IMG/VR virus record: IMGVR_UViG_2907388146_000002
Location: 9,120-73,119 of that record
From: a virus
Lineage: Duplodnaviria; Caudoviricetes
Strand: one strand, 5' to 3'
DNA length: 64,000 nucleotides
Part shown: positions 4,435-29,934 of the stretch, piece after piece
How positions within the stretch are numbered: the stretch's first letter is position 1
Layout: each line of letters starts with the position of its first letter
Translations under genes and position numbers: made by a program
Notes under the pieces: model-generated
The model's input: only the letters and a program-made list of their open reading frames with translations
The model's database searches: none
Told to the model about the DNA's origin: nothing

Positions 4435-6150
4435 CTATTTAGATCGTACCAAAAGTCCTGCTGGATTTGTGAGAGTCGCGAGTTTTCCAAGACCGCCCAT
4501 CATGTCTCCTAAAGCTCCACCGAAATCTCCTTTAGCAAGTTTGTCTATAGTTCCGACAAGCGAAGTGATTTGTCCGGAGATTACAGGAATTACAGACTTT
4601 TCAATATTTGAGACTGTCGTTGCTAAACTTTGCATCGCGCCCTTGTTTTCGTTGAATAAATCAATCATCGCTTTATTCATATCGTATCCTATTTGTGCGG
4701 CTTGTGCTCCAACGTCGGTCGCAAAGGTTTCTTTTTTTGCATTATCGAGACTAAGTCCCTTGTTAAACCCTGCGTCAATTTTTGAGTTATCTGATTTGAT
4801 GTCGTTGTATCCGAATTTCATTCCGGCCATCTCGGAAAAACTTCCACCTTGAAGTTTGTTTACTAGTCCGCGAGTCGTTGCATCGAGTCCGCTCATTGCC
4901 GAAGACATATATTTTCCGGGACTTAGTTCGGATTCTCTGATTGCTTTTATCACGTCTCCACCGTTTGCTTTCAATGCTTCTGCCATGGAAAGGGATCCAA
5001 AAACTCCCCCTCCAAAAGCCCCTTGTCTTCCTTGATCGGAAAGCTGTTCGGACAGTGCCATACGTCTTGAAGGATCTATATTGATTCCGTCTGTTCTTTG
5101 CATACCGGCTGAGAATTTAGCGTAGTCGCTTATATCTCCTGAAAATCCTTTCCCTCTTAAATTTTCAGAAATGGTCGCGAGTTTTGAGATATATTCGGAT
5201 TGTCTCAAACCCTGAAATCCCGAAGCCGAAGCACCTCCGCGTAGAAATCCAATGTCTGCATTTTTTGAATCTTTTCGAATCGTCTCTAACTCTTTAACAA
5301 CCTCAGCGATTCCTTTACCTTGAGAGGCGGCAAATATCATTGTTTTAGAATCAATTTGGTTTCCTTTCCCAAAAATATTTTCACCTGTTACTCGACCCCT
5401 TGTTACGTTTGCTTGTGCGAGCTCTGAGTTTGCGAAGTGCCCTCCTCCACCCCCAACGTAACCGCCGGTCGCGCCTATTGTTCCGGACTGACTTTGCATA
5501 GCGGCGTGATACTGTTCCCCGATTGCAGAGATTGTTTTTAAAACTCCTCCCGCAATTGCAAAAGCGGCTCCGGCGATCGGAATCGCGGCTCCCATGAGTG
5601 AAAAATTATTTCCTCTGACAGAACCTCCGTCGCCTCCTGATCCACCCCCTCCTACAGATCCCGGAATTCCTGAGAGACCACCTTTATCAAAATTTGCATG
5701 TTGGATTTTAATTTCGGCTTTTTGAAGTTGAAGCTGTTTTGCGGAGGTGAGACCGATTCCACTTGGATTCGAATTAGGAGAAGACTCTTCCTCTTCGCCG
5801 TCTTTCTTCTTTTTCTTTTTTCGAAATAGTTCGCGACCGGCAGAAATCTTCTTATCAAGAGTATTAAAAAAACCACCGTTTTGAGTTTCGTCTAAATCAG
5901 ATCCATCGGCTCCCACTTTCGAAGCCATAGCACTTCCACCGGCATACCGGGATGCGGCCTCGAGTTTCTTTTTTTCAGAACTTCTGCCACCGTTTCCGCT
6001 CCCACTGGAAGATCCTTTTTTTTCTGGAACTTTCCCGCGACCGAATACAGGAATTCCTTTTTTCCCCTTTTTTGCAATTCGGTCGTATTCTTTTTCTACT
6101 GACTTGAAGTCAGGCGTTGCCTTGACTTTTATATTTAAGGATTCAGCCAT
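4435..6150 (-). CDS. Tape-measure-like protein
   Basis: Gly/Ala-rich helical protein with an N-terminal LNIKVKA motif, downstream of tube and chaperone genes. Confidence 0.55.
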   Translation of the reverse strand: MAESLNIKVKATPDFKSVEKEYDRIAKKGKKGIPVFGRGKVPEKKGSSSGSGNGGRSSEKKKLEAASRYAGGSAMASKVGADGSDLDETQNGGFFNTLDKKISAGRELFRKKKKKKDGEEEESSPNSNPSGIGLTSAKQLQLQKAEIKIQHANFDKGGLSGIPGSVGGGGSGGDGGSVRGNNFSLMGAAIPIAGAAFAIAGGVLKTISAIGEQYHAAMQSQSGTIGATGGYVGGGGGHFANSELAQANVTRGRVTGENIFGKGNQIDSKTMIFAASQGKGIAEVVKELETIRKDSKNADIGFLRGGASASGFQGLRQSEYISKLATISENLRGKGFSGDISDYAKFSAGMQRTDGINIDPSRRMALSEQLSDQGRQGAFGGGVFGSLSMAEALKANGGDVIKAIRESELSPGKYMSSAMSGLDATTRGLVNKLQGGSFSEMAGMKFGYNDIKSDNSKIDAGFNKGLSLDNAKKETFATDVGAQAAQIGYDMNKAMIDLFNENKGAMQSLATTVSNIEKSVIPVISGQITSLVGTIDKLAKGDFGGALGDMMGGLGKLATLTNPAGLLVRSK

Positions 6151-6517
6151 AGAACTTTAATTCGCTATCGATTCTGTCTAAAAGTTCTTTTCGTTTTAAT
6201 TCCCCTTCACTCGTGAGCATGTCTTGTGAGTACCCGGCCTCTGCCTCCAGGATATGAGCCATTGCTGGGCTTATATTCTCTAGGAATTCCATCGGTTTCA
6301 TCTTCAGAACTTGGCGTTTCTGAGACTTTAGTTTCGATCTCATTAGAAGATTCGGAAGGTCTAATCTGGCTGTCGCTTCGAGGATGAATCTCTTTTGTTC
6401 GAGAAACAGATTTCCCAAATGAGTAACCCCTTTCGGAAGTATTTTCATCTGGTTCATAAGAAATAGGTCGAGAAGATTCTCTTCGTCGTTCAGTGCGTCG
6501 AGCGTCCCTATTTTTTT
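6143..6517 (-). CDS. Tail assembly chaperone downstream (gpT-like) reading frame, probably reached by frameshifting
   Basis: Frame is open from the A9 run (6511-6519) and reads IGTLDALNDEENLLDLFLMNQMK...; it ends overlapping the tape-measure start. Confidence 0.6.
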   Translation of the reverse strand, partial: KKIGTLDALNDEENLLDLFLMNQMKILPKGVTHLGNLFLEQKRFILEATARLDLPNLLMRSKLKSQKRQVLKMKPMEFLENISPAMAHILEAEAGYSQDMLTSEGELKRKELLDRIDSELKFYG

Positions 6518-6854
6518 TTAACTCTGATTTAAACCAGTTCTCTTTTCTTTCGTATTCTTTGAAGAGTCTGATCACAAACTCTTTGTCTCTTATCTGTTCA
6601 AAGGTTTGAATGTCAGGAATTGGAAAGGATTCCGGAATATCCTTTATTACATGGTTTAAAGTAGCGATTGCGTAGATATATCCGTAAGTTGTGTTTGGAA
6701 TTGATTCAAGCGATGCCCCGTTTAATCGTTTCGCAACAGCGATTTCAATATCGAGTTCAGTACTTGGATCTGCGATATCCGCTTCGAATTTGTAAGAGTC
6801 GCCTTCGTATTTTACATTCAGGACCACTCTCTTGTTAGGTTCAAGAATTCTCAT
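6207..6854 (-). CDS. Tail assembly chaperone (gpG-like)
   Basis: Position between tube and tape measure; ordered-looking first ~113 aa end at an A-run, followed by a low-complexity polar tail. Confidence 0.6.
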   Translation of the reverse strand: MRILEPNKRVVLNVKYEGDSYKFEADIADPSTELDIEIAVAKRLNGASLESIPNTTYGYIYAIATLNHVIKDIPESFPIPDIQTFEQIRDKEFVIRLFKEYERKENWFKSELKKNRDARRTERRRESSRPISYEPDENTSERGYSFGKSVSRTKEIHPRSDSQIRPSESSNEIETKVSETPSSEDETDGIPREYKPSNGSYPGGRGRVLTRHAHE

Positions 6855-17240: not shown

Positions 17241-20200
17241 TTATAATAAAGTTTCTTGGTCTTCTGTCGCAGTTTTCCTTTTTTTCCTTTGCCTTACAAT
17301 ATCACCAACTGTATCCAGGTTTTCTTCTACAGAAGAAATTCGTTGAGTATCTGAATCGAATGGTTTCTCCCAGTTTTTTTGAAGTTTCATTTCTCTGAAA
17401 AAATCATCAAACGCGTTATAAATTCGAATCCTGTCATCTCCTTGAGGATAGGCAAGTCCTCTAAACTCATCATCCGTCAACGAATCCGGATCGCTAATAG
17501 TGTTAGGGGCGACCAGATAATTGTTTTTCATCCCCTTCGCTTTCATTTTGTCTTCAGCGTAAGATTCAAAAGCCCTTGCGAATAGTTCACGCGGTTTTGA
17601 CCAATATTGTGATCCAATCTTTAGTGAGGAAATATAGTAGTTTGAATCTTTTCCTGAAGGTGATTTTCGAATAGCGTTCATCAAAACTTGAGCCGAGTCC
17701 CCCAATGACCCTTGAAAATCTTCGCTCACGTAATGACTTCCACTTCGATTGGATTCTTTACCCGTAGATAGGTGATCTAAAAAATGCCCGAATTCATGAG
17801 CAAAAGTTCCGTCTCCTTTTTTCTTTGTTAGATTGATGATTCGGTATCCTGATTCATAATGAGCCATTGCCTTTCCAATACCGCGAGCTCCAAAAGACAT
17901 GCTTAAATTTCCTTCATGGATCGCTTTAGACAGATCCATTTCTAAAACGTCTTCTAAATCTTTTAAAGCACATACGAAACGAGTAATATGTTCTCGGGAA
18001 GTTCGATCATCCATATAATTTCCAAATTGTACGGATTTAAAACCCCAATCTGTAGTCAATCGATCAGATGCAATTTCATCGGTTTTAACAATACGTCCAT
18101 TGGCACGTATGAGCTTTGGAAGTAGTGAACCTCCATGAATTTCATATCCGGATCCCTTTGCACCGGTTGAACGTTTTTTATCCAACCAATTCCAATTTTC
18201 TTTCCTTACTTGATTCTTTGGATCTTTTACCCACTCTTCGCGGGAACGGGGTTCTTTGATATGAATCGCATGAGCATAATTTTTTTCTGCAAACTCTCTT
18301 CTACCTATAGCATTTTGAAAACGTTTACGAAAATAATCTTCAAAGGTTGGATATTCTTTTTTCACACGCTCGATATATTCTTTATCTTCGCGTAGGAAAT
18401 TAATACGATACTTTTCATACTGTGCCTTTGCTTCTAGTTCTCCAAGTGGTTCAAAAAGCATTGCATCATTCCAAGTATTTTTTCCAGGATCGGTTCTTCT
18501 CCGGAGAAGATTAATCAGTTTGTCACCAAATACAGTAGAATGCACGATCAAGTTGGGGTCGTTATCGAAACGGTAGGAAGGTTTCTTTAAAAAAACCTTA
18601 ATTTCTTTATGAAAATCATAAGAATTATTCAGTGTTCCATTTAGGACTTTATCAACTAATACCTCGGAGCCAGGGATAATTTCAGCAAAGAGTTTTTGGT
18701 ATTCTTCCCTGAAAGCGTCTTTTTCGTTTTCGGTAATTCCGTTTAATTTTGATTTAAGAGAATTCATCACCGCTTCAAACTTATTCCTTAATTCGTAGGG
18801 ACTAATCTCAACAAAATTCAAAGCATAACTTTGTATTTCATTGATGGTTTTGGCATTCAAAATGGGTGCCATAATTTTCTCTAAATTTTTTACATATTGT
18901 TCCCGTGCAAAAGGAGAATCAGCCGGTTTAGATGCTATTGCCTCATAAAGTTTTGCTTTTAAATAGGTAAGCCCTGCACTTTCCCCTTTTTCTTTACTTT
19001 CCCGTGCGTTGAATGGAGCTATTATTTGATCTTTCTTTACGACTCGTTCGGCTGTTACAAAATCCATATTTGAAATATCCGAGTAGGAAAGTAATTTTGA
19101 AAGTGCAGCTCTTTCTTTCTTCGAACCTACTACGCGAGTATTTGAATCTTTAAATTGCTTGTTTTTTTCCTTATCATCTAATATTTCAGAAACGGAATTG
19201 AAGGACTTTCGTTTTACGGACTTTACCGTTTCTTTTATAATTGAAGTATTTGATTGCGGTGGGATAGCATTTCTTTTATCCAAAATTCCTTGAATTCCCA
19301 CTTCAGCGATATGTTCACCGACCGCATTCTGATTTCCTTTCATCGCCTCAGAACGAACATTTGGATCGGCGGGCTTTACTTTTTTTCCGTAATCTTCCGG
19401 CTCTGAAAAATATTTCTGAAAAAGGCGTTTTGATCTTATACCTTGATCGATCGCTTCTGTTTTCGTTTTAAATCGAACTGGCCAGTCTTCTAATTTATCC
19501 CCATCAGTTGGAAATTTTAAAGTCCAATCATTCGAATTACTCGCAACTCCCCTATTGGAAACATTTAGCCCCGGTTGGTAGTTATCAACGAAGGTGCGTG
19601 AGATTCCTCCAGACATATTTTTATGATACAATGTATCATCTGTATTCTTGGTAAGAGTAACTAAGCGAGTAGAGACTCCGGTTTGTCTGAAAGAATCTTT
19701 TCCAGTAAAAGAACCTTCCGGTAACTTTTCAGACAATCCTCCTTTCTCAGTAAGCCACTCTCGAAAATCCTGTGACCGAATGTCCCCCCGAAAAAATGGA
19801 CCTTCAGACATGATTGCAACGAGTTTTCCGCCGGGTTTGAGTAGAGCATAGGCGTGTTGTACATGACGAATATCTAATCCTTTCTCGAACGGAGGATTCA
19901 TGAGAATACGGTCATATCTTCTATCCACAAAATCTAAAAAATCGTCCGCAACAATCGTATATCCTTTTGCTTGCAGAATGTTCTTTAAGGAAAACACAGG
20001 CTCGATCGTATCAGGATGAATTCCTGTCTCTTCCGAGATTACTTCCGCTAAGTCTCCTTTTCCGGCGGAGGGTTCAAGAATGTCCATTCCAGGCTGAATA
20101 TCAGCTTCCAATATTAATCTTTGAGCGAGCGGTTTTGGAGTTGGAAAGAACCCTGGGATCTTACTTCCGATTAGTTTCCTTTCCATATTCCGAATTTCAA

Positions 20201-21995
20201 TTTTCTTCGGATCGGGTCCGTCGCTTTTGTTTTTTGCAATGAGGGTGCGTAGGTACTGACCGGCTTCATGAACTTGTTCAAAAGTATTTAGTCCTAGCCG
20301 AAGGACAGCTAACGATCTTTCGGCATAGTTTGAATAAGGATTTCCTTTAAAATATAACTCATAAAGTTTATCTTTTATAATTACGGGATTTTTTGTATTT
20401 GATTTAGCCGGACGGGCATAAAGACACTGTTCAATTTTATTAAATTTATCCATGAGTCTTTTCAAAGACTCAACTTCTTCCAAATTAGAGGATTCGATAA
20501 ATTCAGCTTCACTCGATCCGATTGTTTTTTGAAGCTTACTTGCTTCTTTTAATTCAGTCTTTGAAATCAGTCCGTTTTTGTATGCCCAGGTCAGATTGTG
20601 ACTGTATATTTTGTTACTACTCGAAACAGTAATGTGATCCGTTTCATTTTCATAAATAAATCTTGGTTCCAGTTTTCGAAACCATACAGATAATTTCTCG
20701 GTGAGTGGTTTTTGAGATTGTGTATCTCGATTTATCCTTTGATTGTCTAGTGAATGAGATGCATTGAGAATTTGTTCAATGTCTTTTTTACTTTTTATTT
20801 TTTTGAGATTTTCGGGAAAAGTCCCTAAATCTATCTCATCCGCGATTCCTCGTAATGCAGATTGAATATCTCGCATTTTCTTGGAATCTTCATACATAGC
20901 ATCCGCAATTCTTGCTCTACGATAAGTTACATTTTGTCTTGAAATGGGTGGGCTTTCTTTGTTACGAATCGATTCTTCCATCGAATCTGCTAAGTTTCTA
21001 AATTTTGCGGATAGGACTGCGCGTTTTACTGGCGAGGTATCATCAATTGGTTTTGTTTTGATTTTCGCGTTGTAGTTGAGGAGAGATTCAGTTATATAGT
21101 TTCGAATAATTTTTAAAACAATCGAAGGTTCTTTTTCAACAAGTTTCGAAAGAGCTTCGTTTATCTTTGCCGAAATTGCGGGAGGAATGAGTTTTTTCTC
21201 TACGGATTCTTTAAGGCTTTCAACGTATAGACTGTCTTCAGGATTTAATTCAGAGTCCTGTAATTGAACGACAATTCCAGAGAGCGAATCCGAAGTGAGT
21301 TTTGAAGTTTTGGGTTCCTTAACGTCGTGTTCGCCAGCCGCATTTTCATTTCCAAGCATGGCCTCGGAAAGTGATCTTTTTGTTTCTTGAACTTTTGAAG
21401 AAATTAAGAAACGAATGATCTTATTTACGTTTTCAGAGGAGATACTGACAAACTTGTAAGAAATGTTTAAGAGACTATTTAGGTTATTTTCCCCCTTATA
21501 AGCAAGATCCACGAACTCACTGGCTCTTTTGTCGAGACCCGCGTCTAAAAGCGAATTTTTTACCTGTGTGATAAAATCCCCTAAGTCACGAATCGATTCA
21601 GGGAAGTAGTTTGGTTTGTAATTTTGGTTTAGGAATTTTCTTTCTGTCTTCGGTGCAATATTGAAAAGATTCGGTTCCGATGAGAGGGTTTGTTTTTTTG
21701 GTTTTTGTGCTTCTTCTGAAATGAGGGTGAACGGATTTTCTTCGATTGATGGCGGTTCGTTATTTTTGTTCGTTTCCTTAGGAGAATGTTCAATCTTCTT
21801 TACCGTTTCTGCAATTAGCTTGGAAGCTCGTGCTTGCGAAGGCGATTTAATCATCGCCCAGGCCCCCGGTTCTCCGGAAGGTTTCACCTTTCGCCAAACA
21901 GAACCGTCGGCATGAGTCGAAGGCCAACCGACCGGCATTTCTTTCGTTTTTAAGACTTGTAATGTGGATTTAACAACTTCGCGGATAGACGACAT
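17241..21995 (-). CDS. Large polyvalent protein: N6-adenine methyltransferase + zincin-like HExxH domain + LPD1-like domain
   Basis: FFPTP...LEPSAGKG...MNPPF methyltransferase motifs; FGARG...AHEFGHFLDH; YWSKPRELFARAFESY. Confidence 0.8.
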   Translation of the reverse strand: MSSIREVVKSTLQVLKTKEMPVGWPSTHADGSVWRKVKPSGEPGAWAMIKSPSQARASKLIAETVKKIEHSPKETNKNNEPPSIEENPFTLISEEAQKPKKQTLSSEPNLFNIAPKTERKFLNQNYKPNYFPESIRDLGDFITQVKNSLLDAGLDKRASEFVDLAYKGENNLNSLLNISYKFVSISSENVNKIIRFLISSKVQETKRSLSEAMLGNENAAGEHDVKEPKTSKLTSDSLSGIVVQLQDSELNPEDSLYVESLKESVEKKLIPPAISAKINEALSKLVEKEPSIVLKIIRNYITESLLNYNAKIKTKPIDDTSPVKRAVLSAKFRNLADSMEESIRNKESPPISRQNVTYRRARIADAMYEDSKKMRDIQSALRGIADEIDLGTFPENLKKIKSKKDIEQILNASHSLDNQRINRDTQSQKPLTEKLSVWFRKLEPRFIYENETDHITVSSSNKIYSHNLTWAYKNGLISKTELKEASKLQKTIGSSEAEFIESSNLEEVESLKRLMDKFNKIEQCLYARPAKSNTKNPVIIKDKLYELYFKGNPYSNYAERSLAVLRLGLNTFEQVHEAGQYLRTLIAKNKSDGPDPKKIEIRNMERKLIGSKIPGFFPTPKPLAQRLILEADIQPGMDILEPSAGKGDLAEVISEETGIHPDTIEPVFSLKNILQAKGYTIVADDFLDFVDRRYDRILMNPPFEKGLDIRHVQHAYALLKPGGKLVAIMSEGPFFRGDIRSQDFREWLTEKGGLSEKLPEGSFTGKDSFRQTGVSTRLVTLTKNTDDTLYHKNMSGGISRTFVDNYQPGLNVSNRGVASNSNDWTLKFPTDGDKLEDWPVRFKTKTEAIDQGIRSKRLFQKYFSEPEDYGKKVKPADPNVRSEAMKGNQNAVGEHIAEVGIQGILDKRNAIPPQSNTSIIKETVKSVKRKSFNSVSEILDDKEKNKQFKDSNTRVVGSKKERAALSKLLSYSDISNMDFVTAERVVKKDQIIAPFNARESKEKGESAGLTYLKAKLYEAIASKPADSPFAREQYVKNLEKIMAPILNAKTINEIQSYALNFVEISPYELRNKFEAVMNSLKSKLNGITENEKDAFREEYQKLFAEIIPGSEVLVDKVLNGTLNNSYDFHKEIKVFLKKPSYRFDNDPNLIVHSTVFGDKLINLLRRRTDPGKNTWNDAMLFEPLGELEAKAQYEKYRINFLREDKEYIERVKKEYPTFEDYFRKRFQNAIGRREFAEKNYAHAIHIKEPRSREEWVKDPKNQVRKENWNWLDKKRSTGAKGSGYEIHGGSLLPKLIRANGRIVKTDEIASDRLTTDWGFKSVQFGNYMDDRTSREHITRFVCALKDLEDVLEMDLSKAIHEGNLSMSFGARGIGKAMAHYESGYRIINLTKKKGDGTFAHEFGHFLDHLSTGKESNRSGSHYVSEDFQGSLGDSAQVLMNAIRKSPSGKDSNYYISSLKIGSQYWSKPRELFARAFESYAEDKMKAKGMKNNYLVAPNTISDPDSLTDDEFRGLAYPQGDDRIRIYNAFDDFFREMKLQKNWEKPFDSDTQRISSVEENLDTVGDIVRQRKKRKTATEDQETLL

Positions 21996-24386: not shown

Positions 24387-26332
24387 GTCGAAATGATATT
24401 ACTTCCGCCTGAAATCGATTCTAAATAAAAGCGAAATAAAATCTTGTCCCCGTCTTGTAACACTCCCAGAAAGCGAGCGTCATTCACTTTTGGATCCGAC
24501 TTAAACTGTCGTATTAACTGTTGGATAGATCCCTTACTAATTATTTCATCAAGAGTTTCTCCCCAAACGATCGGATTTCCAAGCTCCGGACTTCCCGGAA
24601 TCGATCCGATTACTATATCAATGTGATCCAGCTTCTCATTCACGAGAGCCTCATCACCTTCCACAATTGCCAAATCACCCGTCGGCGAAACATCAATCCC
24701 TCGGTTTTCAGTGAGTTTTATATCGCATCCAAGAAGTGCGATTTCTAAATCTTTAGGCGTTGGATTGTCCGGCAAGACCGTAAACACATTTGTCTTTGTC
24801 CCAAAGGGGATTTTAATCGCACGCCTTGCAAGAATGGTAGTTTCATGTTGCCCGTTATAAAGCGCGAGAGCTTGTCCTAAAGTCGCATCTCCTAATTTTT
24901 TTTCAGCGACCTGTTCCCAAGTATCACCCGATGAAACATAATGAATGGAAAATTCATTGTCTACGGCCGCCTGATTGATTGCGCTTTGTGTTTCTAAAAG
25001 AATCTGATTTGCCGTCAGCGCAAACTGGTAAACGTCGTTATCAATCCAAGCACTCAAGTCCGCGTTTGGTTGCAGAGACATTGATTCATACGACCCTCCA
25101 GTCTGAACCGGAATCGTAAATTGAGCGACGAGAGAAATCAAAGCACTACAATCCGTAGACGCTTTTTCTAAACTTTGTCTGAAATCTGCTTCGTTCGAGC
25201 GTGACTTCCTGTATGCGTCGTCAATTCTTTGTGAAATTTCCTCCGCATTAAATCCGCGTTTTTTTGATTTGATCCCAAGATCAGCTTTGGCACTTTCAAA
25301 AGTTTTACGTGCTAATTTTCCTTGTACGTTAAATTGATCTTTCATCCGATCCCAGGAAGAAAGGAGTCTTTTGGAAGAACTTGCAAAAACTTGAACACCT
25401 CGCGCGACTCCAAGAAGCGCACCCGATAACTGCAAAGGAAGATTTACGATATTTTCTAACTCGTTCATGAGTCCTGAAATGGTTCGAAACGGATTGAAGT
25501 TACTCCGGATGAGCTGACTCGTAATTGAAGAATCAAGTTCACGTACAACAACCAGATTCAAAGAATATTTATACGTGTTTGTATCGGAGACGGAACGAGT
25601 GATCGTAAAACCACTGGAAGGAACGACGACCTCAACGGTTCGGTTTCTGTCATAGTCTCGAAAAACCATCGCGTGACTTTTCCAAGTAAGGCGTCTTTCT
25701 CTAAAGAGTTTTGCAATCTTTGACCCTTGAGGATCGTTCGACGTATATTGTACCGGGTCAAGACTTCTAGAATAGTGCAGAATGAACATAAAATCCTGGA
25801 ATTCTTGCAATCCCGATCGAAAGTCCCCTCCTCCGAGGCTTAGATAACTGCTTCTGATTTTATCATAATAGCTACTTACAGAATTCGAAACGATACTTTT
25901 AGCGGCGGAGAATGCAGACTGAATAAAACCCGCACCTGTATCTCCCGGAATTGCAGACCTGGGTTTTGCAGGAAGTCCCAGATGGTAAATGTGGAATTCG
26001 CCTTCCAATTTAATTTCATGGTTGTCCGGTCCATAGTCAACGACCACGACTCCTCCGAAAGTTTTTTCAATTCCAACGCGATATTTAAAATTCTCCGTAT
26101 ATTGGAGCGGACCATTTACAAAAAAATATTCATTCGAAACGACATTCCCATCCGTGAGATTATAGGAACCGTTGTTTTGTTTTTCATAAAATGAAAGAGA
26201 GAAAACGTTCTGCGGTTGGTAAGTCGGTGCTAAACTTCCGGTAAATGCACCGCCTGTTACAGAATTAAAAGCAGACTTCGCACCATCTACTACACTCCCA
26301 CCGAACCCAGAAACCGAATCGAGAACTCCCAT
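24383..26332 (-). CDS. Baseplate protein with LysM-like and C-terminal gp25/gpW-like domains
   Basis: HYVSSGDTWEQVAEKKLGD...LYNG LysM-like segment; TGDLAIVEGDEALV...GSIPGSPELG gp25-like segment. Confidence 0.65.
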   Translation of the reverse strand: MGVLDSVSGFGGSVVDGAKSAFNSVTGGAFTGSLAPTYQPQNVFSLSFYEKQNNGSYNLTDGNVVSNEYFFVNGPLQYTENFKYRVGIEKTFGGVVVVDYGPDNHEIKLEGEFHIYHLGLPAKPRSAIPGDTGAGFIQSAFSAAKSIVSNSVSSYYDKIRSSYLSLGGGDFRSGLQEFQDFMFILHYSRSLDPVQYTSNDPQGSKIAKLFRERRLTWKSHAMVFRDYDRNRTVEVVVPSSGFTITRSVSDTNTYKYSLNLVVVRELDSSITSQLIRSNFNPFRTISGLMNELENIVNLPLQLSGALLGVARGVQVFASSSKRLLSSWDRMKDQFNVQGKLARKTFESAKADLGIKSKKRGFNAEEISQRIDDAYRKSRSNEADFRQSLEKASTDCSALISLVAQFTIPVQTGGSYESMSLQPNADLSAWIDNDVYQFALTANQILLETQSAINQAAVDNEFSIHYVSSGDTWEQVAEKKLGDATLGQALALYNGQHETTILARRAIKIPFGTKTNVFTVLPDNPTPKDLEIALLGCDIKLTENRGIDVSPTGDLAIVEGDEALVNEKLDHIDIVIGSIPGSPELGNPIVWGETLDEIISKGSIQQLIRQFKSDPKVNDARFLGVLQDGDKILFRFYLESISGGSNIIST

Positions 26333-26340
26333 AGCTTGGA

Positions 26341-26394
26341 AGAATAAATTTTTTCACCCTATCGGATGTCCGATTTTTGAAATCGAATTACGTT
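26341..26394. promoter_or_regulatory. Back-to-back pair of putative late promoters driving divergent baseplate operons
   Basis: Palindrome ATCGGA-TG-TCCGAT (26361-26374); minus strand CCGAT-N14-TATTCT, plus strand CCGAT-N14-TACGTT. Confidence 0.65.
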
Positions 26395-26401
26395 TTCAGG
26401 A

Positions 26402-27598
26402 ATGGGAGCTCCCGCACCTTACATTCCAAAAACGGCACTCGAATACAAGACAGCGCAACAAAATAGCCTACTCGCTAGTGGCTCTCGGTTATCAAACTTC
26501 AGTCCTGGATCCAGGATCTCAACTTGGATTGCGACCATTGCCTCAGTTCTCGCAGAGGGTGACGTAAGAACTCTGAACGGATTTGATTATTCGATCAGGG
26601 AAGGAGTATATAACGCATTCGGTTTTACGAGGTTGCCAGGTTTAAAGGCGATCGGAATTCTTCGAATCGATCACTCAGGCCACACAACACCCGTAAACAT
26701 TGGAATCTTCACACTCGACCTCTTCGGTCTTATATACGAATCTATCGCACCCATTACGATTCCAGTTGGTGAAACCTCCGTTGAAATCGAAATCAGAGCT
26801 AAGAACCCAGGGAAAGATTATAACATTACCCGGCTTTCCATTGATACACAAGAGGGACTTGGTTCTGTAAATGTACAAGTTCCACCGAATACGAGGATCT
26901 GGAATCCAAGTGATTTCGCGGGTGGAACCAATATTGAAAGCGAAGAAAATAGACTCCGTCGTTTTCGCAATTTTATCGTTTCACTGGGTCGTTCCACTCC
27001 TCTTGGAATCTATACAGCAGCGACCTCGATTCCTGGAGTGGCTGGAATTCAACTTACGACGAACGTAAATCCGTACTCCGGAGCGTTTGAAATTGGTTGG
27101 ATCAATCTTTATATCTCCGACGGAACTTCTAATCCTCCTCAAAGTCTTCTGGATTTTGTCCAGAAAACGATTGAAGGAGATTTGTCAGATCCAGAGAACT
27201 TTCCGGGCTTTGCGGCTGCCGGAACATTTGTTGCAGTTTTTAGAATTCCTGTTCTTGGAATTACAGTTAAGTTTGAACTTCAAATTCAAAACGGATCTCA
27301 ACTTTCAAACGAACAAGCCTTAGATATCGCACAAAACCAGCTCACACTTTATTTAAACACCTTACCCGTTGGCTTCGATGTTTTGTTAAAACAAATCGAG
27401 GGAACGATTCTCAAAGCTCATCCTGATTTTTACAAAGTAAACATCACCGAGTTTTATGGAAAACTCGCATCCGATCCGATACCATCCCCTCTCCCACCTC
27501 CAAGTGATATTTCAGTTCCCTCTGTGGATCTTCCAAGAACCGGCGGAACTTCCGGAGGAATCATTTCAGGATCCGTAACTCGTGTGGAGCCGTCTTAA
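26402..27598 (+). CDS. Baseplate J-like wedge protein
   Basis: GGTNIESEENRLRRFRNFIVSLGRSTPLGIYTAATSIPGV motif. Confidence 0.85.
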   Translation: MGAPAPYIPKTALEYKTAQQNSLLASGSRLSNFSPGSRISTWIATIASVLAEGDVRTLNGFDYSIREGVYNAFGFTRLPGLKAIGILRIDHSGHTTPVNIGIFTLDLFGLIYESIAPITIPVGETSVEIEIRAKNPGKDYNITRLSIDTQEGLGSVNVQVPPNTRIWNPSDFAGGTNIESEENRLRRFRNFIVSLGRSTPLGIYTAATSIPGVAGIQLTTNVNPYSGAFEIGWINLYISDGTSNPPQSLLDFVQKTIEGDLSDPENFPGFAAAGTFVAVFRIPVLGITVKFELQIQNGSQLSNEQALDIAQNQLTLYLNTLPVGFDVLLKQIEGTILKAHPDFYKVNITEFYGKLASDPIPSPLPPPSDISVPSVDLPRTGGTSGGIISGSVTRVEPS

Positions 27599-27599
27599 T

Positions 27600-28199
27600 A
27601 TGCCACATGAAAATAAATTACTGGATGGACTCCCTCAGTTCAATGAGACCGATCCCGTATTCAAAGAATTGTTTGGAGATCCTTCTCGTCCTGAACTAAC
27701 ACCTGTTTCGAATATAAACGATATCAATGTCGGTGCGATTTACAACTCCGTAGAGTGGCATTTAAGATATCAAGATCTTGCGGTCAAGAGTGCGGTTCTC
27801 TCGGGTGCCGAACAACACTTCTTAGAAAAATGGTCTGAGTTACTCGGAATACAACGACCTTCCGGAATGTCAGATTCGGAATTTGTCGGTTATATCATCG
27901 GCTACGTTCTTTCGAACGAGCCAACGATTCCAAAAATTGGAGAGATATTTCCAAAACCAAATTTCGCAGTTCTACGTTGCGACGAGCTAGGTTTTGCAAC
28001 CGATGTATCCGCGACCGACCTCGGCCTCATTCTTCCAGGACCAGATACCAAAGCAGTTTCAAGTGTCATCACTCCGGACAGAGGGGCGACTTACGTTCTC
28101 ACAAACGACTTAGACAAGTTATCCGACTTACAACTCACCGAACTCAATCGAATTCTTGCGGCCGGCGTCGCCGCATTTGCAGGGGAAACAGATGGCTAA
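27600..28199 (+). CDS. Baseplate wedge protein (gpI-like)
   Basis: Follows J; LEKWSELLGIQRPSGMSDSEF motif; start taken at ATG 27600. Confidence 0.65.
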   Translation: MPHENKLLDGLPQFNETDPVFKELFGDPSRPELTPVSNINDINVGAIYNSVEWHLRYQDLAVKSAVLSGAEQHFLEKWSELLGIQRPSGMSDSEFVGYIIGYVLSNEPTIPKIGEIFPKPNFAVLRCDELGFATDVSATDLGLILPGPDTKAVSSVITPDRGATYVLTNDLDKLSDLQLTELNRILAAGVAAFAGETDG

Positions 28200-28977
28200 C
28201 GAATTAAAGGTGCCTTTAACAAATAACGAAGTAAAAGTATATTATCAAAGTTTACTTCAAAAAGTTACCGCAACCGATTTCAATCGACTGTCGGGAGCAG
28301 AATCCGAACATTCTGCAATTCCCGCAGTCCTAACCGCGATACTTGCGACTATCGGAAGAAGCACGGATACTGCAATTGGTTTTTCAGTTTCTACACTTGA
28401 TAGCCAAACAATTAAAGTAGGTGCAGGTCTTTATATTCGACCTCACGCAGTTTATATCTTTCCACCTGTAACTCTTTCTCCTCACTCCGGTTCTTTAGAA
28501 GGAATCTATGAAATCGAACTCGAAGAAACTCTTACCGATTCATCGGCGGTTCCTCTTTGGAATACAACCACTCAAAGATTCCAACCCCAAGTAAGGCCAA
28601 CTCGTAAAACATACAGGACAAGTCTTTTTGAACAATGGGTAAATACTCCGGGGATTCCAAACCCGACCATAGGCAGAATCGGGTTACTTTCCTATAAGAA
28701 AAATACGATCGGTGGACCCATTACAAATCTCAATCGGATTTTACCCGTATATGATCCGGGCTTAATCGGAGTGGAAGTCCAGTTAGATCCTGGAATCGGT
28801 GATCGCACTTCAATTGCCGATGCGATCAATTGGCTTTTTCAACATGTTGAATCGAAAAATTTTATAAGAACTACCGTTTCACCCGGCTATGATAATGCGA
28901 AATTTCAAGTAAGAACGCAAGGAAACTTTGCTTATTGGAGTAAAGATAGCGGAGGTACCTGGTTCCCTTTCGCATAA
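28192..28977 (+). CDS. Baseplate/tail-tip protein, short form (261 aa)
   Basis: Coupled to the gpI-like gene; ends two codons after a slippery heptamer. Confidence 0.65.
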   Translation: MANELKVPLTNNEVKVYYQSLLQKVTATDFNRLSGAESEHSAIPAVLTAILATIGRSTDTAIGFSVSTLDSQTIKVGAGLYIRPHAVYIFPPVTLSPHSGSLEGIYEIELEETLTDSSAVPLWNTTTQRFQPQVRPTRKTYRTSLFEQWVNTPGIPNPTIGRIGLLSYKKNTIGGPITNLNRILPVYDPGLIGVEVQLDPGIGDRTSIADAINWLFQHVESKNFIRTTVSPGYDNAKFQVRTQGNFAYWSKDSGGTWFPFA

Positions 28978-29033
28978 CCCCACCGAGTGGACCTTCGTCT
29001 CCCGTTTCTGGAGCTGGTGGTCATTGGGTGGGG
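28965..29033 (+). other. Candidate -1 programmed ribosomal frameshift signal
   Basis: In-frame C CCT TTC heptamer, 6-nt spacer, then an extended hairpin closed by CCCCACC/GGTGGGG. Confidence 0.7.
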
Positions 29034-29417
29034 AATTTAGGATCGGGTCGTTACGATGTATTTCCAAAAGGTTCGTATTCTATCGGGGACGTTTGGCACG
29101 TAGTAGACGCACATATCGATCAGGGTGGAAACGTTACCGATTGCGGTCAATGCGGAGGAAACACTAGCTGTCATAACCTTGGACCATGGTTTGATTGCCC
29201 TCACTGTCCGGCGGGATATTCTCAAAGCAACGCAATTGGTCTCTGCTGGGTCGGCGGAACAGTTTTTACACCGTGTTGCACGAGTACGTGCTGTATCAAC
29301 ACATGCAATACTTGTCATGTCTCCAATTGGTTTACTCGTTATAAAGTTTATAAGTACGAATTCTTCAATTGGACTTTAGTATCTCAATATACCGTTCACG
29401 GAAGACTCTGGAGTTAG
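28971..29417 (+). CDS. Cys-rich domain (12 Cys) in the -1 frame; probable frameshift extension of 28192-28977
   Basis: Frame is open from 28950; Pro/Ser/Gly linker followed by the Cys-rich segment; an independent GTG start at 29028 is also possible. Confidence 0.65.
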   Translation, partial: RITPPSGPSSPVSGAGGHWVGNLGSGRYDVFPKGSYSIGDVWHVVDAHIDQGGNVTDCGQCGGNTSCHNLGPWFDCPHCPAGYSQSNAIGLCWVGGTVFTPCCTSTCCINTCNTCHVSNWFTRYKVYKYEFFNWTLVSQYTVHGRLWS

Positions 29418-29423
29418 TCAATC

Positions 29424-29591
29424 ATGGATGAAAAGAAAAATAATGATTTTTCAGAAAAAAGGATGGGAACGTGTCTTACGTGTCCCTTATTGTTAAAGGG
29501 ATTTCTTTCAGAGCAATGTTCTGTTTGTCACTGCTTTGTAAGGCTGAAAACGAAATTAAAACGAGAATCTTGCCCTATAGGCAAGTGGTAA
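29424..29591 (+). CDS. Small Cys-rich protein, DUF6171-like (55 aa)
   Basis: Below the ORF-track cutoff; RMGTCLTCP...QCSVCHCFVRLKTKLKRESCPIGKW. Confidence 0.75.
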   Translation: MDEKKNNDFSEKRMGTCLTCPLLLKGFLSEQCSVCHCFVRLKTKLKRESCPIGKW

Positions 29592-29598
29592 CGAATAT

Positions 29599-29934
29599 AT
29601 GTCTGGATGTTGCGGAGGAAGCAGTATGAACCAACAATTAATTTTTCAACAATTAAGTCAACTCACTGGCTTAGGTATTAATAAAGGAAAAACGGCAAGC
29701 GAGGCGGCAAACGACGCAGATATTTTAGTTAAGGCATTGGCCGTGAAAGCGAAGGAAATGGAAAAAATCTATCCTGAAAGTGGTAAGGATTTGATCTTTC
29801 ACCAACTCACTCAATATGCGTACGGGAAGTTCAGCGTTGAATCGGATATTCCAAAAGTAGTCGATAGTGTGGCCGCCATTGTTTCCGACCTGTTATCAAA
29901 AGCGAAGGCTTTGGAAAGTCAACTCTCAGGTTAA
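29599..29934 (+). CDS. Hypothetical protein with MSGCCGG N-terminus and an internal duplication
   Basis: LIFQQLSQ...AKEME and LIFHQLTQ...AKALE repeats. Confidence 0.7.
   Translation: MSGCCGGSSMNQQLIFQQLSQLTGLGINKGKTASEAANDADILVKALAVKAKEMEKIYPESGKDLIFHQLTQYAYGKFSVESDIPKVVDSVAAIVSDLLSKAKALESQLSG

Follow-up and report, generated by a model that had tools for sequence, protein, structure and literature searches.

Is the cysteine-rich open reading frame (ORF) that follows a baseplate-operon gene in a Leptospira prophage a gene of its own, or is it the distal part of the upstream protein, reached only when ribosomes change frame? The locus lies in a 64,000-nucleotide (nt) stretch of viral DNA, here called the window, which is part of a 73-kb virus record (positions 9,120 to 73,119 of IMGVR_UViG_2907388146_000002). 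A 261-amino-acid (aa) ORF on its plus strand (28192 to 28977) begins with ATG and ends TGG TTC CCT TTC GCA TAA, with the TAA at 28975 to 28977. The -1 frame is closed by a TAG at 28947 to 28949, then stays open from 28950 to a TAG at 29415 to 29417, and reads PFRITPPSGPSSPVSGAGGHWVGN. Our favored explanation, to which sequence comparison leads us to give a probability of about 0.88, is that a programmed -1 ribosomal frameshift ends a baseplate-anchored receptor-binding or fiber-like gene of a Leptospira LE1-like myovirus plasmid-prophage. A preliminary description of the locus had already proposed that a -1 frameshift fuses the cysteine-rich ORF to the upstream protein. That core claim is now backed by a conserved slip site, spacer, and stem, by covariation in the stem, by -1-frame coding in the linker, and by loss of the supposed GTG start in relatives.

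The DNA is assigned to the LE1-like plasmid-prophages, a group found widely among Leptospira species. Its closest relatives among deposited phages are vB_LalZ_80412-LE1, vB_LnoZ_CZ214-LE1, vB_LbrZ_5399-LE1, LinZ_10-LE1, and Lin_34. The phage encodes a tail sheath, which suggests that it is a myovirus. We compared about 37 distinct junction sequences from Leptospiraceae prophages and metagenome contigs. The genome sources were species representatives, L. adleri and L. ainlahdjerensis among them, and 15 of 114 Leptospiraceae genomes; the other sources were IMG/VR contigs, five deposited Leptospira phage records, and metagenome and Logan contigs obtained via protein searches. The guanine-plus-cytosine (GC) content of these contigs ranges from 32 to 58%, with metagenome relatives of 46 to 58% among them. 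Sampling 401 genomes across the phylum yielded no further hosts outside the Leptospiraceae set. Across the relatives, identity is 55 to 94% in the N-terminal part (the 261-aa body) and falls to about 40% in the added domain.

The proposed slip site and coding in the -1 frame

The junction carries a slippery heptamer, C CCT TTC, in X XXY YYZ phase (28965 to 28971). It is followed by a 6-nt spacer, GCA TAA (28972 to 28977), that contains the zero-frame stop, and then by a hairpin (28978 to 29033). The preliminary description had listed the heptamer, the 6-nt spacer, the hairpin, and the open -1 frame, and each is present at the coordinates given here. By our own arithmetic, an in-phase heptamer would be expected by chance in the 9-codon overlap with a probability of about 3%, and the signal in this single sequence is only suggestive. 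The comparative data place the heptamer far beyond chance. It is invariant in the roughly 37 distinct relatives, the spacer is 6 nt long in every one of them, and the zero-frame stop always lies three bases past the heptamer, as TAA or, in L039, L040, and L041, as TGA. When 25 distinct relatives were aligned over 1.23 kb, 13.7% of the columns were invariant, and only two invariant runs exceeded 3 nt: CCCTTTCG (28965 to 28972) and TAACCCC (28975 to 28981). The best-conserved 21-nt window of both ORFs in this alignment is 28964 to 28984.

Two positions of the heptamer are especially informative, as zero-frame coding puts no constraint on them. Position 1 is the third base of TTC, CTC, CAC, CGC, TAC, or ATC (encoding F, L, H, R, Y, or I), and position 4 (T) ends a Pro codon; the two are equally invariant. 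Without a slip, the -1 frame would not read these positions either: its open stretch before the heptamer is 5 codons long here and 2 to 7 in most relatives (longer in L020, L034, L036, L038, L039/L040, and L046), and its start is not conserved. The invariance of these coding-free positions therefore fits the re-pairing on CCC and UUU that a slip site requires.

The heptamer is also of a kind known to be efficient. In E. coli, C_CC.U_UU.C is reported to give -1 frameshifting at a high level and belongs to the efficient H_HH.U_UU.Y class, and U_UU.C taken alone is the second most shift-prone tetramer there (PMC4066793). The shift-prone tetramer would also suit other recoding at the same place, such as slippage of a single tRNA on U UUC, a shift of +2, or a short hop across the stop codon, and any of these would fit the frame relation (-1 = +2) and the conserved block. 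However, CCC is invariant as well, though position 1 is a free third position, which points to re-pairing in the P site and hence to tandem slippage. No pair of take-off and landing codons is apparent for a hop. We regard recoding by one of these other routes as improbable.

Two further candidates were rejected. Transcriptional slippage lacks a homopolymer run, as the site offers only CCC and TTT. For stop-codon readthrough, the zero frame past the TAA closes within about 20 codons here and after 9 in L028, and it is not conserved.

Past the heptamer, the -1 frame encodes a Pro/Ser/Gly linker, RITPPSGPSSPVSGAGG (28971 to 29021), upstream of a GTG (29028 to 29030) that falls within the hairpin's 3' arm and serves gene callers as the start of a 129-aa ORF. 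We counted variable positions by codon phase over alignment columns 43 to 99, which cover the zero-frame stop, the linker, GTG 29028, and the HWVG codons that follow. At -1-frame codon positions 1, 2, and 3, the variable columns number 7 of 19, 5 of 19, and 15 of 19, respectively. The linker peptide, ITPPxGPSSPVSGAGGHW, is kept through synonymous changes, including switches of Ser between TCT and AGC. This pattern is a clear sign of -1-frame coding upstream of GTG 29028.

These data bear on the simplest alternative, two separate genes, in which the cysteine-rich ORF would start at GTG 29028, CTG 28959, or ATA 28974, either de novo or by termination-reinitiation. A 129- to 131-aa product is indeed called from the GTG by ORF finders and some pipelines, GGTGGT sits 6 nt upstream of that codon, and many Leptospira sequences have a CTG or TTG in the -1 frame just ahead of the heptamer. 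None of these candidate starts is retained across the relatives, however. At least six lineages have another codon in place of GTG 29028: GCG in L023, TGG after a register change in L031, and GAG, TCG, or GAA in L032, L034, L036, and L039. In the window, the GTG forms part of a -31 kcal/mol stem, on its 3' side. It is probably not a start codon. The CTG or TTG ahead of the heptamer is absent in L029 to L031, which have no NTG there, and the ATA past the heptamer has become GTA or TTG in L016, L027, and L039. In several lineages (e.g., L029 and L031), the short open stretch before the heptamer contains no ATG, GTG, TTG, or CTG, and among the relatives compared we found no conserved alternative start for the -1 ORF. 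Separate genes would not account for a 17-codon linker that is conserved as protein upstream of the GTG, with variation at third positions, and would leave unexplained both the invariance of heptamer positions 1 and 4 and the fixed 6-nt spacing of the stem. The preliminary description had considered a separately initiated product from 29028, for which we find no support in the sequence evidence. We give separate initiation only a slight chance.

A third possibility is a pseudogene, a single 408-aa gene split in two by a recent frameshift mutation or by an error in sequencing; one added base near the junction would indeed fuse both ORFs. However, the split falls at the same base in about 37 independent assemblies that differ in species, collection, and GC content, and both parts are under coding constraint. 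The preliminary description had also raised the prospect of homologues fused in frame, and none was present in the databases searched. The 22 clusters of the N-terminal part are all 186 to 286 aa long (21 of them 247 to 286 aa), and a profile search over 1.8 billion representatives found nothing but short ORFs and repeat or compositional matches. Candidate fusions among the latter were rejected: P0023 (2056 aa, 36 stretches, best profile positions 72 to 121) and P0034 are matches to cysteine-rich repeats, as judged from the results table only, and P0036 (399 aa) is an unrelated repeat protein. The lack of any in-frame fusion among these homologues excludes a sequencing error for practical purposes, and we consider the probability of either kind of artifact negligible. 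In no relative are the frames fused or the genes separated; therefore, both products and their ratio seem to matter. By comparison across the relatives, the slip signal and the coding of the -1 frame are thus shown to be under selection.

Elements flanking the heptamer

The hairpin begins 6 nt 3' of the heptamer and has a predicted minimum free energy of -31.4 kcal/mol (z = -2.5; 2 of 200 shuffled sequences were as stable). Its outer stem pairs CCCCACC (28978 to 28984) with GGTGGGG (29027 to 29033); the middle pairs join 28989 to 28993 with 29019 to 29022, and an inner CTCC/GGAG stem joins 28999 to 29002 with 29010 to 29013. RNAalifold recovered the outer stem and the middle helix as a consensus. 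When a 15-pair structure was laid over 24 sequences, 96.3% of the cells were paired, versus 37 to 60% when the partners were slid by 1 to 3 columns, and compensatory changes were found at alignment pairs 48-95 and 66-78. The preliminary description had suggested looking for the heptamer, spacer, and stem in related Leptospira prophages; all are conserved there and in metagenome contigs.

The placement of the stem is as constant as its pairing. The 5' arm starts at position +7 in all 30 distinct sequences, metagenome relatives included. The mean contiguous stem is 8.9 base pairs (bp) at +7, versus at most 3.8 bp for starts at +1 to +6 and 4.3 bp in shuffled sequences. Compensatory pair types occur at four of the seven outer-stem pairs: pair 5 is A-U, G-U, G-C, or U-A, and pairs 1, 2, and 6 change on both sides. 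The resulting arms (5'/3') include CCCCGCC/GGCGGGG, CCCCUCC/GGAGGGG, and CUCCGCC/GGCGGAG, as well as UCCCACCC/GGGUGGGA and UCCCUCCC/GGGAGGGG. A lineage with 32 to 35% GC has an unrelated 10-bp stem, CGCCGUCAGG/CCUGACGGCG, at the same position. The segment enclosed by the stem (the loop length) varies from 14 to 42 nt among the relatives, and the hairpin energies range from -17.8 to -45.7 kcal/mol, with all except L042 at -21.7 kcal/mol or stronger. In the outer stem, three third-codon positions besides that of the Trp codon are invariant, while the 11 unpaired third positions of the linker all vary; the conservation of the stem therefore exceeds what the protein needs.

The low-GC lineage is metagenomic and comprises L037 (27 to 100), L045 (394 to 470), L046, and L047. 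It keeps the heptamer and the 6-nt spacer with a wholly different stem, and it has a linker about 30 residues longer and an added domain of 197 to 199 aa. Another metagenome relative, L036 (775 to 830; 56% GC), has a compact hairpin with a 7-bp stem and a 16-nt loop. No Rfam family matched the window between 28800 and 29200 at E <= 1. An intrinsic terminator was rejected as an explanation of the hairpin, as there is no U run past the stem and the region is coding.

Upstream of the heptamer lies a Shine-Dalgarno (SD)-like GGAGGT (28951 to 28956, 8 nt before the heptamer), a candidate frameshift stimulator. No other site in the 560 nt that precede the heptamer is as complementary to the anti-SD sequence (-10.8 kcal/mol). 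A similar element lies 6 to 12 nt upstream in most of 32 relatives, with a mean anti-SD energy of -8.1 kcal/mol, versus -1.5 kcal/mol for blocks of the same size from the rest of the gene; L036, L046/L047, L029, and L032 have a weak element or none. By analogy with dnaX, GGAGGT is a probable upstream stimulator.

Under the frameshift reading, a ribosome would meet the hairpin 6 nt ahead with CCU (Pro259) in its P site and UUC (Phe260) in its A site, and in most lineages the internal SD-like sequence 6 to 12 nt upstream would pair with 16S ribosomal RNA. A fraction of the ribosomes would then slip back by one base, re-pair on CCC and UUU, and read on in the -1 frame; the remainder would read GCA and terminate at the TAA. 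Two proteins sharing their N-terminal 258 to 260 residues would result. Both isoforms would probably be incorporated into the baseplate, in proportions fixed by the putative efficiency of the frameshift.

Several points weigh against this account. In L036, the hairpin loop contains a -1-frame ATG, which makes independent initiation conceivable in that lineage alone. The SD-like element falls within conserved Gly/Glu codons, and some lineages lack it, leaving its stimulatory role uncertain. Conservation of the stem arms could partly reflect the T-P-P and W-V-G residues that they encode, and the functional view of the added domain given below draws on position, fold class, and variability only. 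With regard to the stem, the covariation and the invariant third positions in the alignments argue against coding as the whole explanation.

The predicted products and the added domain

The arithmetic of the ORFs gives the two product sizes of the preliminary description. The short isoform would be the 261-aa protein. From the heptamer to the TAG at 29415 to 29417, the -1 frame contributes a C-terminal extension of 150 codons (28965 to 29417) with exactly 12 cysteines, so the long isoform would have 258 + 150 = 408 aa and the junction ...TWFPF|RITPP.... Peptides that would identify the two forms are DSGGTWFPFR and ITPPSGPSSPVSGAGGHWVGNLGSGR at the long-form junction and DSGGTWFPFA at the short-form C terminus. 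None of the three deposited Leptospira phage records that we inspected annotates the extension, and entries for the added domain in protein databases are short ORF calls only.

The short form would consist of a shoulder domain and a small C-terminal region. It belongs to PHROG 4351, a family with no assigned function. An AlphaFold model of the body has a predicted local distance difference test score (pLDDT) of 71, with high values over residues ~58 to 190. In a VIA-align search, with matches over residues ~5 to 197, SPP1 gp22 was the top match (Z 8.8; root mean square deviation, 3.5; 104 residues aligned). It was followed by the tail fibers of cyanophage A-1(L) (Z 8.3) and HFTV1 (Z 7.8), the receptor-binding proteins (RBPs) of lactococcal phage p2 (Z 6.6) and phage 1358 (Z 6.4), and TssK (Z 5.8). 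All of the top 12 rows were phage fiber or RBP, baseplate, or type VI secretion system baseplate/TssK-like proteins, and unrelated rows scored below Z 4. Foldseek returned the same theme, weakly. The modeled body thus bears the N-terminal shoulder fold of RBPs and TssK, a similarity of fold at 10 to 19% identity for which homology is not established.

Gene order agrees with this fold. The 261-aa ORF is preceded by a 205-aa gene in the gpI position (27582 to 28199), and before that lies a Baseplate_J gene on the plus strand (26402 to 27598; Pfam E 5.8e-14; PHROG 6, baseplate wedge). The 261-aa gene occupies the slot of tail-fiber gene H in a P2-like gene order. Its product is a receptor-binding or fiber-like protein, probably anchored to the baseplate, as gene order indicates. 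The preliminary description had called it a tail-tip protein, a label that the VIA-align matches sharpen to a baseplate-anchored protein of receptor-binding or fiber-like type with an RBP/TssK shoulder fold.

The long form would add the Pro/Ser/Gly linker and an all-beta, cysteine-rich domain of ~130 aa, which AlphaFold modeled with a pLDDT of 83.6. Alignment of the relatives divides the domain into an N-terminal conserved block (GHWxGN..RYDVFP.GSY.VGD.WH.V), a C-terminal conserved block (NW.T.Y..Y.Y.F..W), and an insert between these beta-strand blocks that varies in length and sequence. In the window, the insert (29142 to 29315) is the cysteine-rich part, with 12 cysteines and three CxxC pairs. 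Among 34 distinct variants, the cysteine count is 4, 8, 10, 12, or 16. Because the number is even in every variant, the cysteines may form disulfide pairs rather than four-cysteine metal sites.

The fold of the added domain could not be matched to a known one in the searches made. Pfam and PHROGs had no match, Foldseek against PDB and BFVD gave nothing at E <= 0.001, a wide VIA-align search reached at best Z 4.3 with no clear fold match (immunoglobulin [Ig]-like folds included), and ESM Atlas had no usable match. Foldseek hits to flavivirus and bunyavirus envelope proteins (E about 0.01; template modeling score, 0.2 to 0.3) were set aside as noise from long beta hairpins. From its position, fold class, and variability, we suggest that the added domain is a distal host-contact module, probably stabilized by disulfides, with the cysteine-rich insert as its variable part. 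The preliminary description had proposed a substoichiometric module for host recognition or metal binding, which is plausible, although the even cysteine counts lean away from metal sites.

Downstream of the frameshifted gene are small ORFs and a ParB-like gene. A 55-aa ORF with CxxC pairs (29424 to 29591) matches Pfam DUF6171 (E 5.5e-08) and PHROG 13558, and a 111-aa ORF that starts MSGCCGG (29599 to 29934) matches PHROG 4073; the two occupy the slot expected for a fiber assembly chaperone. The idea that the DUF6171 protein is a conserved partner of the cysteine-rich domain is unsupported beyond the Leptospira clade, as its counterparts in the distant relatives L038 and L039 have no DUF6171 match. 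The baseplate genes form two divergent units separated by a 70-bp control region (26332 to 26402): a 649-aa baseplate protein and its neighbors run leftwards from 26332, and the J/I/fiber operon runs rightwards from 26402. A 1584-aa ORF on the minus strand (17241 to 21995) lies between the head and baseplate genes.

Comparison with known recoding systems

The mechanism proposed here is canonical; the class of gene and the added domain are new. In E. coli dnaX, an SD-like sequence lies about 10 nt upstream of the X XXY YYZ heptamer A AAA AAG, and a hairpin lies about 6 nt downstream. With its probable SD-like stimulator counted, the layout in most lineages of our comparison is similar, and in both systems a stop is close to the site. 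The differences are that the shifted product is shorter in dnaX and longer here, that the heptamer here is C CCU UUC, and that the gene is a virion gene rather than a replication gene. We found no sequence or Rfam relationship between dnaX and this cassette.

Among virion genes, the T7 capsid gene produces 10A and 10B by frameshifting at G GUU UUC, and SPP1 gp17.1/17.1* is likewise extended by a frameshift. The T7 site and the one described here are both of the X XXU UUC type. According to a 2016 recoding review, phage frameshifts in capsid and major tail genes, located near the zero-frame stop, add C-terminal domains, including Ig-like ones, to a minority or fixed share of the subunits (PMC5009743). 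Further cases are the T3 capsid and Lactobacillus phage A2 head proteins, the coat proteins of Listeria phages A118 and A500 (both by -1 shifts), and, by +1 shifts, the A118/A500 major tail proteins and the PSA coat and major tail proteins. In these extended capsid and tail-tube proteins, the added domain is usually Ig- or FN3-like, whereas here it is a cysteine-rich all-beta domain on a receptor-binding or fiber-like protein. Tail fiber, baseplate, and receptor binding do not occur as terms in the part of the review that was searched (PMC5009743), the paper on PRFect mentions no tail-fiber or baseplate frameshift (PMC10885494), and a literature search on Leptospira prophages and frameshifting found nothing relevant.

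The structural matches of the 261-aa body offer a second comparison. The shoulder superposes on those of the p2 and 1358 RBPs, SPP1 gp22, and TssK (Z 5.8 to 8.8), and in each case an anchoring N-terminal domain is combined with an exchangeable distal head. In those proteins, however, the shoulder, neck, and head form one in-frame chain, whereas here the distal domain would be reached by recoding only. A more tentative extension, to which we give rather less than even odds, is that the frameshift is this phage family's sole means of attaching its host-contact module. The short form would then be headless and the long form would carry a disulfide-knotted head of an undescribed fold, whose hypervariable cysteine-rich insert reads the Leptospira surface, with slip efficiency setting the ratio of the two in the baseplate. 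If this is true, receptor-binding stoichiometry would be under translational control, a form of control absent, for phage fibers, from the reviews consulted, and the arrangement would predate the family's spread across hosts of 32 to 58% GC and have persisted since.

A conserved frameshift in a receptor-binding or fiber-like gene would extend virion-gene frameshifting to the host-recognition apparatus. It would also give a handle on how LE1-like plasmid-prophages recognize their hosts, and it points to a cysteine-rich domain without an assignable fold. The about 37 natural variants form a ready mutational series, in which the slip site and its spacing are fixed and the stem, loop, and SD-like element vary.

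The cassette also resembles the G/GT tail assembly chaperone of lambda and most tailed phages, in that a conserved -1 frameshift lies in a tail gene cluster and is seen through slip-site conservation and an open -1 frame. It differs in that the tape-measure gene comes immediately after G/GT, whose products do not form part of the virion, whereas the gene described here follows Baseplate_J and a gpI-sized gene. A separate tail-assembly-chaperone frameshift region seems to lie elsewhere in the window, on the minus strand at 6143 to 6854, where two ORFs (6207 to 6854 and 6143 to 6457) overlap; a 571-aa ORF at 4435 to 6150 adjoins them.

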